A DNA stretch of 64,000 bases from PVC group bacterium (GCA_024231215.1 JAAEQR010000202.1:302-64301), one strand, 5' to 3'; positions 918 to 3,585 are shown, counted from the first letter of the stretch. Notes: generated by a model not told the origin, from the sequence alone. Program-made: numbers and translations.

Positions 918-1408
918 CTTATACCTTAAAGTTAACAAGATTTTATACGGGGTTATATGATATGGATACATGGATTTTAATATTGTGTTGTGGATAATAT
1001 CAACCACTTAGAGACGAGGGTGGGTATATAGCTACCCATTATGGGCCGTAACTATGCGAATCACCTTTGATGGGCTATATCAATATTACCTGCATGTGCG
1101 CGTTCGGTGGTGCACGTGTCATGTTTCAGGCCTGAACGAGATATATGCACGTATCGCAATGGTAAACTTTGCCAATCTTTGCAAAGAAACTGTAGCTAAT
1201 AGGTAAATATACGAAGGTCTGAAACTGTGACTGAGGACTTGATACATGGACAAGCGACAATGGGAAATGGGGGATTGCTATGGATGGGGGTAGGGGATAT
1301 ATAACAGTCCATTTATTAATTTGTACAGATGCCCTGTGTGCGTAAGAGTCCCACGACAGAGGGGGTATACCATAATATTATATAATTTATAACAAAAGGA
1401 CATTTATT

Positions 1409-1666
1409 ATGCCAAGGACTAAGAAGAAGAAGTTTGATCCAGAGGGTAGGGGCTATGACTATGATAGTGCACATAAAGCCGGGATGGGGCGTGGAAAGGA
1501 TGGTCATTATGAAAGCCGTGTAGACAGTACTGGTTTGCTATTAAAGGGCCGGAAACACACGACTTGGGATAAGTTGGTTGAGGGCGAGGCAAAGGCTGGT
1601 TACGAGATATATAAAAAGAATGGTCGTTATTACTCACGCAAAAAACAAGGTCTAGCCGGTAAATAG
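1409..1666 (+). CDS. small basic hypothetical protein
   Basis: 85-aa ORF, K/R/G-rich. The GGGGGTATAC motif lies 40 nt upstream. Confidence 0.3.
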   Translation: MPRTKKKKFDPEGRGYDYDSAHKAGMGRGKDGHYESRVDSTGLLLKGRKHTTWDKLVEGEAKAGYEIYKKNGRYYSRKKQGLAGK

Positions 1667-2072
1667 ATGCCCTGTCTATGTATAGCCACAAAGGTACTAT
1701 ATAATCAAAGGGGTATAGTATAAAAAAATACATTATAATTTTATTCATTTTATTATTAAGTACCAAGTGCTTCGCTATTGGTTATGACACCTGTGTTAAC
1801 TACACGCTAAGCGAATGTGCTTATTTTCTAGATGGCAAACTACGGCTGGCTGAAAAACAATTAAATATAGATTATCCATATAATGCTATATATGGGACTG
1901 AGGCAGAATTTATAAACAGGATTATAGTTGTTCGTAAATTGGTTGGTCACAATGATGATTGGTATGTGCCAAGACTGCACAGAATGGCAGAAAAGTGGTT
2001 TAAATTAAGCAGAGAGATTTTGCGTTTAAATATATTGTTAAATCATGATATGTAATATGGGTGTCACGATAA

Positions 2073-2357
2073 GTGGGGTATAACACGAAAAGAACATTAT
2101 TTACACCAGCAAAATGCCCAACATGCGGAGACAGCATGAGTCATTCCGGCACTGGTTCTACTATGGTTGGTTACTGCAGCCCACCGGGGCACGACCATGA
2201 CGATAATTGTTTAAGTCGCACATATCGTTGTGAAAATGGCCACGAGCATCGTTATTCACTTCGCAGACGTTGTAATGTTGAGGGTTGCGGCTGGGTTGGT
2301 AAAGACGAGTGTTTTTGTCATGATGGTAAAAAGGTTGATAAATGGCCGGATGAATAA
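2073..2357 (+). CDS. Cys/His-rich zinc-finger-like small protein
   Basis: 94-aa ORF with many CxxC, HxH and CxxxxxH pairs. The GTG start is embedded in the GTGGGGTATAAC motif, giving an MGY N-terminus. Confidence 0.35.
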   Translation: MGYNTKRTLFTPAKCPTCGDSMSHSGTGSTMVGYCSPPGHDHDDNCLSRTYRCENGHEHRYSLRRRCNVEGCGWVGKDECFCHDGKKVDKWPDE

Positions 2358-2389
2358 GCATCCTTATACCAAAGGGGTATAGCAAAGAA

Positions 2390-2563
2390 ATGACATTATT
2401 GGGTGGATATATTAGTTGTTTTGTGTTACCGGAAAGTGGGTTGCGAATAAAACGTTGTTGGTGTTGTGGTGAACAGATTCTTTTAATGAGTCATGTGTGG
2501 GATAAGACATGGGGTGGCGTATGCCGGTTTGACGGTCTGGTATTAGATTCTTTTGATGAATAG
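2390..2563 (+). CDS. small hypothetical protein (57 aa), Cys-rich
   Basis: ORF not in the track (<60 aa). Its ATG is 7 nt after the AAAGGGGTATAGC motif and it ends exactly at the next motif copy. Confidence 0.2.
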   Translation: MTLLGGYISCFVLPESGLRIKRCWCCGEQILLMSHVWDKTWGGVCRFDGLVLDSFDE

Positions 2564-2826
2564 TGGGGTATAGCGTGGAACATCCATTTATTATTTTTGT
2601 TGGTGACAGATATTATGCAAGGCCGGGATGGTGTGGATATTTAGATTCTGCAAAAACACTGGCAGATGCTATTGTTATTGCCAAGAAGGATGTCGAATTA
2701 GAGGATACCATGTACCGTTGGTGGCAAGTTGTAGATATAAGAACAAGAAGAATTGTAGCTGGCGAGGGGTCGAGTCATACCGGGTTGTATGGCGAATGTG
2801 ATACTAAGTGGAATAAAGATAGTTAA
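2563..2826 (+). CDS. hypothetical protein
   Basis: 87-aa ORF. The GTG start lies inside GTGGGGTATAGCGTG, giving an MGY N-terminus. Confidence 0.35.
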   Translation: MGYSVEHPFIIFVGDRYYARPGWCGYLDSAKTLADAIVIAKKDVELEDTMYRWWQVVDIRTRRIVAGEGSSHTGLYGECDTKWNKDS

Positions 2827-2830
2827 TTCA

Positions 2831-3013
2831 ATGGGGTATAACGTGAAAAAAGACGAATTAAATATATATTACAAAGCAAGTTGGGGTGATTTTGTAAATA
2901 CCGTGCTTGATTTAGCATTAGAAAGAGTATTGCGAAAATTTGGTTATTACCGCTTTGGTTCTGGTATAAGTAAAGATGGCACAAGAAATTTGGAGTTTTA
3001 TAGAAAAGCATGA
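2831..3013 (+). CDS. hypothetical protein (start moved to the internal ATG inside the ATGGGGTATAAC motif)
   Basis: The track ORF is 2789..3013. The in-frame ATG at 2831 reproduces the MGYN N-terminus seen in the two upstream paralogous starts. Confidence 0.3.
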   Translation: MGYNVKKDELNIYYKASWGDFVNTVLDLALERVLRKFGYYRFGSGISKDGTRNLEFYRKA

Positions 3014-3184
3014 AAAACGAAGACGAAATCAGACAAATAGTCAAGGATGAGATTGAAAGGTATTTTTGGGGGTTAGATATATACCAGAAATTTAATAACA
3101 TTATATATGAACGAACGGGTTATTTCACAAGTGAGCAGTTTTTAGATGATGTAGTAGATCGCATTAAAAGGAAGCAGATATAGC

Positions 3185-3382
3185 GTGGCAAGCAACATTG
3201 AGAAAATAGCACGAATGGTAGAAAACCCTAATTGGCTTGAGGATGCCTTCCAGAATATGACTGCCGAGGATATACATGCATATGAGAATTTTAGCATTAA
3301 TCGTGATGCAGCCAATCGTGCAATTGATAAGTTCTTTAATGCCAGAAATCCATTATATGATTTATTGGTAAAAAAAAGATAG
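3185..3382 (+). CDS. hypothetical protein
   Basis: 65-aa ORF. The GTG start follows the GATATAGC motif. Confidence 0.3.
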   Translation: MASNIEKIARMVENPNWLEDAFQNMTAEDIHAYENFSINRDAANRAIDKFFNARNPLYDLLVKKR

Positions 3383-3402
3383 TTAAATTAGTTGGATATA
3401 GC

Positions 3403-3585
3403 ATGAACGCAGACATAATAACCATAGCAAAGCAGAACATTGAAATACGCAAGACGAATCTGGCAGAATTAAAGGTGGATATTGGATTGGCGATGGAGGC
3501 CAAAGTCGCTATGGATAAACACGCATTATGGCTTGAAGGTGAAAAGCAGAATTTGCCTTATTTACAAGAATACGAGAATGAATGA
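3403..3585 (+). CDS. hypothetical protein
   Basis: 60-aa ORF. The ATG follows GGATATAGC. Confidence 0.3.
   Translation: MNADIITIAKQNIEIRKTNLAELKVDIGLAMEAKVAMDKHALWLEGEKQNLPYLQEYENE

Follow-up and report, generated by a model that had tools for sequence, protein, structure and literature searches.

A putative translation-initiation cassette at the heads of small ORFan genes in an uncultured tailed phage

Start-associated sequences (SAS) have been described in actinobacteriophages. In Cluster K mycobacteriophages, the sequence GGGATAGGAGCCC is found 3-7 bp before start codons (PMC3203893), and in Cluster EF Microbacterium phages the SAS reads GGGAAAGGACCCC (PMC7302621). Published SAS occur in 10-19 copies that are distributed over half a genome (PMC3203893). 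Here, we analyze a motif with the consensus GGGGTATARC (R denotes A or G) within 64,000 nucleotides of contig JAAEQR010000202.1 (assembly GCA_024231215.1, positions 302-64301). We refer to this whole stretch as the window. It represents nearly all of a 64,661-bp contig that was deposited as 'MAG: PVC group bacterium' (MAG, metagenome-assembled genome) with GY853_ locus tags, and that is the genome of an uncultured tailed phage with a GC content of ~40%. Of eight small ORFan genes in a row (positions 1720-3585), seven are headed by the motif, always in one orientation. We propose, with a probability of roughly 60%, that the motif serves as a conserved cassette for translation initiation, carried on the mRNA of a single polycistronic operon of accessory genes (~1409-3950).

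The closest analogue appears to be the SAS of the Cluster K and Cluster EF phages. Like the SAS, our motif is short and asymmetric, is used in one orientation and occupies the position of a ribosome-binding site. Both elements head a subset of non-structural genes from unrelated families, which in our case are all small ORFans, and both join a Shine-Dalgarno (SD) core to conserved positions that are unable to pair with the 16S rRNA (assuming, for our phage, a canonical anti-SD). A role in translation initiation has likewise been proposed for the SAS, whose function is unproven. However, the sequences are unrelated, and the host in our case is not an actinobacterium. Our motif is confined to 7-8 copies in one 1.7-kb cluster, as opposed to the 10-19 dispersed copies of the SAS, and its extension 3' of the SD fills the whole spacer and abuts the start, whereas the SAS ends 3-7 bp before it. 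The start codons are mostly GTG or near-cognate codons here, but mostly ATG in SAS-associated genes, and conservation across related genomes is a key argument for the SAS, whereas no close relative of our phage was found in the collections searched. Imperfect inverted repeats of 17 bp, called ESAS, have been published for about half of SAS sites; no ESAS-like repeat was found upstream of the motif copies.

Three other systems invite comparison. In phage T4, early translation-initiation regions that are repressed by RegA or cleaved by RegB share features of the ribosome-binding site that allow coordinated post-transcriptional control; RegB needs GGAG, and RegA recognizes loosely defined sites with A/U-rich sequence around the AUG. 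Our genes similarly form a set with common ribosome-binding features, but the motif does not contain GGAG, and no RegA or RegB homologue was seen among the proteins scanned. PeSL cassettes of T4-type phages (PMC2839356, PMC4122927), which bound indels between related phages and are thought to mediate modular shuffling, resemble our motif in that they are repeated and flank small non-essential ORFans in a hyperplastic region. However, PeSL consist of a strong sigma-70 promoter and a terminator stem-loop, whereas the copies of our motif have no promoter or terminator matches; PeSL are transcription signals, while the present cassette would be a translation signal. Finally, the stoperators of Cluster A mycobacteriophages such as L5 (PMC3203893) are also asymmetric repeats, of 13 bp, that lie in short intergenic regions and are oriented with transcription. 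In contrast to our motif, they are DNA sites bound by a repressor, are found genome-wide and keep no fixed register with start codons.

A clustered motif ahead of unrelated small genes

GGGGTATARC is found exactly six times in the window, while 0.12 occurrences are expected, and none of 100 shuffled sequences reaches six. Four of the exact copies are located within 770 bp (positions 2075, 2374, 2565 and 2833). The shorter string GGGTATA occurs 20 times in the window (8.7 expected), with seven of these on the + strand between 1022 and 2840; among all 16 sites on the + strand, seven lie at most 14 nt before a gene start. To the exact copies in the cluster can be added two with one mismatch, at 1362 and 1710, and two degenerate ones, CAGATATAGC at 3175 and TGGATATAGC at 3393. 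All copies from 1710 to 3393 stand at gene heads on the coding (+) strand. A position-weight matrix (PWM) derived from these seven gene-head copies recovers the seven and, beyond them, only two intragenic chance copies (49929 on the + strand and 36276 on the - strand); its lower-scoring matches are at shuffle level (23 versus 21.5).

The original prediction had described a larger GGG(G)TATA family between 1031 and 3405. Its core and its clustering are borne out, with coordinates that are a few bases off ('1031', for example, corresponds to 1022-1032). However, matches with at most two mismatches are not enriched across the window (91 versus 80.7 expected) and low-scoring PWM matches are at shuffle level, so the copies near 1031, 1070 and 1290 (which read GGGTATATAGC, GGGCTATATC and GGGGATATATAAC, respectively) are indistinguishable from chance. 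Moreover, only two of three supposed occurrences of an extended form, AAAGGGGTATAG, could be found, at 1707 and 2371.

Among the gene-head copies, 9-10 of the 10 core positions are identical, while the flanks in most pairs are only 23-50% identical. In some copies the similarity is more extensive. The segments 2812-2866 and 3372-3426 share 71% identity across 55 nt, and the genes that end within them stop in different frames (TAA at 2824-2826 versus TAG at 3380-3382). Similarly, 2075-2101 and 2374-2400 are 78% identical. As a set, the upstream flanks (30 nt ahead of the core) show a weak similarity that exceeds that in random sets of gene starts (0.365 versus 0.287 +/- 0.023, p = 0.002), and the 30 nt upstream of copy 1362 are similar to those upstream of copies 2075 and 2374. 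Downstream of the motif, an ACATTAT-type box is present in four of the seven copies, as compared with none of 94 other gene starts, and is read in two different frames (Table 1). An unbiased test is less extreme: random sets of seven starts match the observed level in 1.7% of cases. The conserved span, from -10 to about +17, is like the stretch of mRNA that lies under a 30S subunit.

The similarity between the genes appears to be one of nucleotides and not of proteins. It had been suggested that the small open reading frames (ORFs) are paralogous, but we saw no evident similarity between their products past the residues that the motif itself encodes, as judged by inspection and not by formal alignment, and each protein forms a singleton cluster. 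By comparison, the idea that a cassette has been reused ahead of unrelated small genes is supported.

Proposed ribosome binding and the choice of start codons

In the mechanism that we favor, GGGG(T) would be the SD element, pairing with the anti-SD CCUCC via one G:U wobble, and TATARC would be a fixed, A/U-rich spacer of 6 nt in which one frame has a stop codon (TAR). The next gene would begin with the codon directly after the spacer, such that ribosomes finishing the upstream small gene, or binding de novo, would be placed on the codon just past the motif. Together, in some copies, with ~30 nt of upstream sequence and the initial 5-6 codons, the cassette would have been reused ahead of small ORFan genes that are unrelated to each other, most likely when gene junctions were duplicated or recombined. 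That it was reused in this way is suggested by the fact that the 10-nt core was kept while the flanks diverged or were never related. We infer that the motif acts on the RNA and that the RTG, ATA or ACG codons downstream of it are starts; any regulatory factor that recognizes it would likewise be inferred.

The position, orientation and spacing of the copies, as well as their potential as SD elements and their lack of promoter geometry, can be read directly. The gap between the motif and the start is 0 nt in six of seven copies, where the base after the 10-mer opens GTG (2575, 2843 and 3185), ATG (3403), ATA (1720) or ACG (2085); in the copy at 2374, the gap is 6 nt (ATG 2390). GGGG, often as AAAGGGG, is a regular form of the SD in this genome; at 11 other predicted starts, it is found with a gap of 5-7 nt. 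The peak in its gap distribution is the same as that for GGAG and GAGG, and the gap within the motif is 6 nt. With a canonical anti-SD, the duplex energies at motif-abutting starts range from -6.1 to -8.9 kcal/mol, except at 3403 (-3.1 kcal/mol), compared with a median of -6.5 for 94 other gene starts and a mean of -3.6 for random 20-mers. GGGGU pairs with this anti-SD, and ATARC does not. The fixed register with starts, the SD content and the NCBI starts at 2575 and 2843 therefore support the view, which was already part of the original prediction, that the motif is a translation-initiation cassette. SD function does not need a conserved spacer, and the fact that this one is kept suggests an additional constraint, e.g., coordinated translational control.

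It is important to emphasize that several points weigh against this interpretation. Three of the seven copies are not abutted by a canonical start (they are followed by ATA, by ACG, and by AAA with ATG two codons on), and the rule of an SD, 6 nt and a start is clean in only four copies. At 2073, a GTG that overlaps the motif has its own SD-like element upstream, GGGTGT (-8.1 kcal/mol, compared with -8.9 kcal/mol for ACG 2085), and at this copy the motif may fall within coding sequence. The duplex energies all assume a canonical anti-SD, which may not be the 3' end of the host's 16S rRNA. Other SDs of the GGGG type in this genome use quite different spacers, so SD function alone leaves the conservation of TATARC unexplained. 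Finally, no related genome that we found in the collections searched carries the region.

The choice of start codon can be considered gene by gene. The original prediction placed GTG or ATG starts inside the motif in three genes, giving proteins that begin M-G-Y. The embedding is literally present at 2073, 2563 and 2831, but is not beyond chance (P(>=3/5) = 0.35), since it requires just [AGT]T before the GGGG run and 42% of the window's GGGG runs have such a dinucleotide. GTG 2563, which would give MGYS, overlaps the stop codon TAG of the upstream gene, and ATG 2831 would give MGYN. Neither is preceded by an SD (-2.4 and -1.5 kcal/mol, respectively), while the GTG codons downstream at 2575 and 2843 reach -6.9 and -6.1 kcal/mol. 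NCBI gene calls begin at these downstream codons (protein P0002 of 83 aa and a 56-aa protein), which are likely the true starts of the two genes. Given embedding at chance level, no SD and downstream NCBI starts, the M-G-Y termini at 2563 and 2831 are most likely artefacts of choosing the first in-frame start.

The situation is different at 2073, where GTG may be a real start because it has its own SD-like element and because the codon after the motif is ACG. NCBI begins this gene at ATG 2136 (73 aa), which cuts off an N-terminal CPTC zinc-finger element; we consider GTG 2073 or ACG 2085 a more likely start than ATG 2136. The protein encoded by 2073-2357 is small, Cys-rich and zinc-ribbon-like.

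ATA 1720 is likely the start of the ORF at 1720-2055, for which no other codon is a plausible start. It is located at the start position that the motif defines, 5 nt after GGGGT. The codon score of this ORF is the best of the six frames (+0.08, versus -0.18 to -0.57), and the portion before its first TTG scores as coding in its own frame only. A full-library HMMER search returned a single marginal match, to a DUF5122 propeller repeat (E = 6.5e-4, residues 48-88). The ORF is not annotated by NCBI and is the only strand-consistent case of its kind in the window. In E. coli, initiation at ATA reaches 1-2% of the AUG level (bioRxiv 10.1101/063800).

At the copy at 3175, the upstream gene and the next one form a stop-restart junction, TAG-C-GTG, in which GTG 3185 lies one nt past the stop. 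We also considered whether TAR in the motif might be a backup stop for the upstream gene, and rejected this: it is in frame in two of seven copies, which is the chance level. The ORF at 1409 had been regarded as an exception with a copy 40 nt upstream; such a copy exists, at a distance of 37 nt.

Alternative readings of the motif

The original prediction also interpreted the motif as a promoter for leaderless messages. TATARC would be a -10 element for host RNA polymerase, or the motif would be a site for a phage sigma factor or polymerase, and each gene would have a leaderless or short-leader transcript. TATAAC and TATAGC do match TATAAT at 4-5 of 6 positions, several copies have a -10-like box (CATTAT, TATAAT or CATAAT) 9-10 nt downstream, and at copy 2374 an ATG lies 6 nt past TATAGC, so a transcript beginning there would be leaderless. 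Most of the early proteins are ORFans, and it is therefore conceivable that a sigma factor was not recognized. However, sigma-70 -10 elements need T at their last position, which is C in seven of eight copies (the gene-head copies and 1362 taken together) and T only at 1710 (TATAGT). The best matches to a TTGACA -35 element cover 1-3 of 6 positions, which is equal to random positions, and none of the motif copies passes a sigma-70 scan. Judging by geometry only, a transcript starting ~7 nt after TATARC would begin beyond the start codon in 5-6 of seven copies, and only ATG 2390 fits; the predicted transcript start is past the abutting RTG in four copies, and all three embedded NTG codons would likewise precede it, with the -10 element itself downstream of these codons. 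A scan of 30 proteins revealed neither an RNA polymerase nor a sigma domain, and canonical sigma-70-like promoters are present elsewhere in the window, at 84-112 and 157-185. In view of the C at the end of the -10 element, the -35 region at background level and transcript starts past the start codons, we regard promoter activity as very unlikely.

It might instead be that the motif is an operator of the SAS type, i.e., that an RNA-binding protein, a small RNA or an endoribonuclease, whether from phage or host, recognizes GGGGUAUARC on the mRNA and switches the small genes together, much as RegA or RegB of T4 act on early translation-initiation regions. TATARC is kept even though it does not pair with a canonical anti-SD and other GGGG SDs use other spacers, and the same argument has been made for SAS positions that are unable to pair with rRNA (PMC3203893). 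Further points in favor are a core that is nearly invariant between flanks that in most pairs are not, the confinement of the copies to one cluster of non-structural genes, and a very basic 85-aa protein encoded by the first gene of the operon (1409-1666). However, no candidate regulator was found, and the 85-aa protein matches no family and no structure. RNA around the motif copies forms no consistent hairpin (z-scores of -1.24 to +1.48), the GGAG that RegB requires is not there, and nothing sets an operator apart from a cassette that was retained through recent duplication. The operator idea is thus tentative and rather unlikely to be correct, and it extends the translation-initiation cassette rather than excluding it. 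A more specific version, in which a phage-encoded factor reads UAUARC, co-regulates the small genes and enables initiation at AUA 1720 and perhaps at ACG 2085, is decidedly improbable. A further possibility is that the motif mainly serves as a recombination linker, with copies at junctions that let small genes be inserted, swapped or deleted, for which the PeSL cassettes of T4-type phages provide a precedent (PMC2839356). In line with this, co-oriented direct repeats lie on both sides of each small ORFan gene in a region that splits terS from terL, the GC content of the motif-headed genes varies from 0.31 to 0.45, the flanks of most copies are barely related, and a second cassette of 25 nt, with 100% identity, surrounds a 1239-bp low-GC segment (4233-5496). 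However, at 10 nt the core is short for homologous recombination, the linker model does not require the register with start codons or the SD content, and no sister genomes were found in which indels bounded by the motif might be seen. We consider a linker as the main function somewhat more doubtful than an operator. The retention of the spacer may reflect additional translational control, use as a recombination linker or recent duplication.

A number of other elements were rejected on geometry only. Sigma-54 promoters of the -24/-12 type have the wrong spacing; T7-like promoters would have TATA and GGG in the reverse order, and no RNA polymerase was seen in the proteins scanned; an archaeal TATA box would be too near to the start. 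Integron attC sites are excluded by the absence of inverted repeats, and iterons or a CRISPR-like array by the irregular spacing (191-365 bp). Chi-like sites would leave the register with start codons unexplained, and targets of methylases or homing endonucleases would have a different copy distribution. We also rejected SD-sequestering hairpins as a general feature, since they are present only at 1322-1371, 1670-1713 and 2364-2382. Related to this, a repeat, AGATGCCCTGTnTnTG, occurs at 1327-1348 and 1665-1686, which is 35-45 nt upstream of copies 1362 and 1710, and its CCCU can pair with the motif's GGGG both times, making a possible SD-sequestering hairpin.

The two canonical promoters mentioned above are upstream of the first gene of the window (218-373) and read TTGATA-17-TAAAAT with a TG (84-112) and TTGCCA-17-TATAAT (157-185). 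They lie amid TTGATAA(N)ATTATA(G)ATAAC repeats, which are candidate operators. Weaker sigma-70-like matches are found at 932-961 and 1353-1381.

Genome setting, other junction cassettes and distant relatives

The motif cluster is part of 8.5 kb of small ORFan genes that separate the gene for a DUF2280 protein from the terminase large subunit gene (Table 1). This accessory region interrupts what is usually a terS-terL pair; a DUF2280 gene is located immediately before terL in an Acinetobacter prophage (PMC7760358). Structural genes occupy the + strand up to ~47.7 kb. From 47.8 kb, replication and DNA-modification genes are encoded on the - strand, including those for an O-like initiator, a Mom-like protein, a ParB-methyltransferase and an exonuclease. 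No terminator-like site was found between 1409 and 3647 (the nearest are at 3647 and 3925), and a single polycistronic operon is the simplest model of transcription for the small genes.

Table 1. Positions of motif copies, small genes and other features (coordinates count from the first nucleotide of the window)
Feature	Coordinates	Strand	Remarks
DUF2280 protein	423-917	+	Left border of accessory region; position usual for the small terminase subunit (terS)
Hairpin TGGGTA-TATAGC-TACCCA	1021-1038	+	Carries motif-like GGGTATATAGC; no T-run after it
One-mismatch copy GGGGTATACC	1362-1371	+	37 nt before ATG 1409; inside the spacer of sigma-70-like match 1353-1381
First operon gene	1409-1666	+	Very basic 85-aa protein
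Copy GGGGTATAGT (9/10)	1710-1719	+	AAA before; ATA 1720 directly after; anti-SD duplex -8.0 kcal/mol, ending 4 nt before 1720
Small ORF	1720-2055	+	111 codons; signal-peptide-like N-terminus IKKYIIILFILLLSTKCFA; no ATG, GTG or TTG before codon 74
Exact copy GGGGTATAAC	2075-2084	+	ACG 2085 directly after; first G overlapped by GTG 2073
Exact copy GGGGTATAGC	2374-2383	+	AAA before; ATG 2390 6 nt downstream, in agreement with NCBI call
Exact copy	2565-2574	+	GTG 2575 directly after; 83-aa gene
Exact copy GGGGTATAAC	2833-2842	+	GTG 2843 directly after; 56-aa gene
Degenerate copy CAGATATAGC	3175-3184	+	PWM score 12.5; includes TAG 3181-3183, the stop of upstream gene 3010-3183
Degenerate copy TGGATATAGC	3393-3402	+	ATG 3403 directly after
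Downstream box ACATTAT	1730-1736, 2094-2100, 2393-2399	+	9-10 nt after motif end
Downstream box ACATAAT	3413-3419	+	9-10 nt after motif end
Motif-headed small ORFan run	2073/2085-2357, 2390-2563, 2575-2826, 2843-3013, 3185-3382, 3403-3585	+	All protein clusters singletons
Gene without motif	3010-3183	+	Sole such gene of the run; start coupled via ATGA overlap
Terminase large subunit (terL)	9460-11088	+	phrog_675, E = 8.8e-87; right border of accessory region
Portal gene	12852-14798
Compressed motif GGGGTATAATG	37465-37475	+	SD, stop TAA 37471-37473 and overlapping ATG 37473; -9.8 kcal/mol; joins two tail-region genes
Mom-like DNA-modification protein	55052-55693	-
ParB-domain/DNA-methyltransferase fusion	56916-58016	-
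tRNA-Trp(CCA) gene	58382-58457	-

The ORF-free stretch at 1008-1408 precedes the operon. A palindrome that had been noted there is confirmed as a hairpin at 1021-1038. However, of four motif copies that had been assigned to this stretch, only that at 1362 is a good one, and it lies inside a weak promoter match. The stretch also holds G-rich ATGGG(G) repeats. It has no match in Rfam, and its predicted fold is not significantly more stable than those of shuffled sequences (z-score -1.25). The original prediction had suggested an origin or pac region as possible roles; the stretch may represent a promoter or leader, a pac site or decayed cassettes.

Other gene junctions in this genome also carry cassettes that combine a stop, an SD and a start. 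Besides the compressed motif at 37465, there is a perfect direct repeat of 25 nt, TAGAATGGAAAGAGGTGAAATGAAT, at 4233-4257 and 5472-5496, which is unrelated to the motif and is composed of a stop followed by an SD and ATG-AAT. Its two copies bracket the 1239-bp segment of low GC content (0.27-0.30) that was mentioned above and that holds two ORFs, one membrane-like (49 aa) and the other GDSL-lipase-like (354 aa, 4410-5474). The segment looks like a module that was inserted or duplicated through a common junction cassette. Based on the junctions at 37465 and at 4233/5472, the reuse of such cassettes seems to be a habit of this genome. In addition, the motif-like sequence GGGTATATAGACTAATG at 37190-37206 forms a TAATG overlap at the end of a 1281-aa gene in the tail region, and four adjoining early genes on the - strand (61943-63615) have a second family of ribosome-binding sites, AAAGGGG(TG)AAnnTT-ATG, with start codons at 62407, 62563, 62794 and 63601.

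Searches of IMG/VR, JGI metagenomes, GTDB genomes and GenBank phages revealed no relative with more than ~55% TerL identity. The nearest TerL relatives in genome collections (L038, which is BPTM01000318.1, L036 and L037) are 43-47% identical and come from MAGs that carry the labels Heimdallarchaeota and Deltaproteobacteria, so the 'PVC group' label of the source MAG is unreliable as a host assignment. The motif is absent from 38 distant loci with a total of 322 kb. Searches with the DUF2280 protein, the ORF at 1720 and an 87-aa protein returned the source contig itself or nothing, and a blastn search of positions 1-6000 against phages gave no match.

Scans of IMG/VR for a pattern of two copies mostly returned genes with tandem protein repeats. 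In one unrelated viral contig (IMGVR_UViG_3300037461_000459), two tandem paralogous small genes on the minus strand (MPLTK...) are each preceded by an identical ATCGGGGGTATAAC-ATG (reverse complement of 2922-2938 and 3190-3206). This shows the same 10-mer serving as SD and spacer elsewhere, and does not constitute independent support. A more distant relative of our phage (IMGVR_UViG_3300023198_000834, TerL 42% identical) has a different motif, TAAWTCCGGGAGG (WCCGGGAGR), in nine co-oriented copies between 4688 and 12575, where 0.28 are expected. Each copy is located 4-9 nt before an ATG, and some copies head structural genes. Lineage-specific start-associated motifs are thus not unique to our phage.

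These observations have some practical relevance to gene calling. The rule of taking the first in-frame start most likely yields false M-G-Y N-termini, and the NCBI annotation misses the gene at 1720-2055, with its likely ATA start, and probably truncates another by starting at 2136 instead of 2073 or 2085. Otherwise, the motif is a real and fairly ordinary feature, a newcomer to the start-associated-sequence kind that is unrelated to its other members in sequence, and the finding by itself opens no new mechanism. If the motif were the operator of a phage-encoded factor, it would be the first system of the SAS type beyond actinobacteriophages to offer a hint as to mechanism. If it truly acts as a control element associated with starts, translational signals like the SAS would not be peculiar to actinobacteriophages, but would have counterparts of unrelated sequence in distant phage lineages, as the nine-copy motif of the distant relative may also illustrate.

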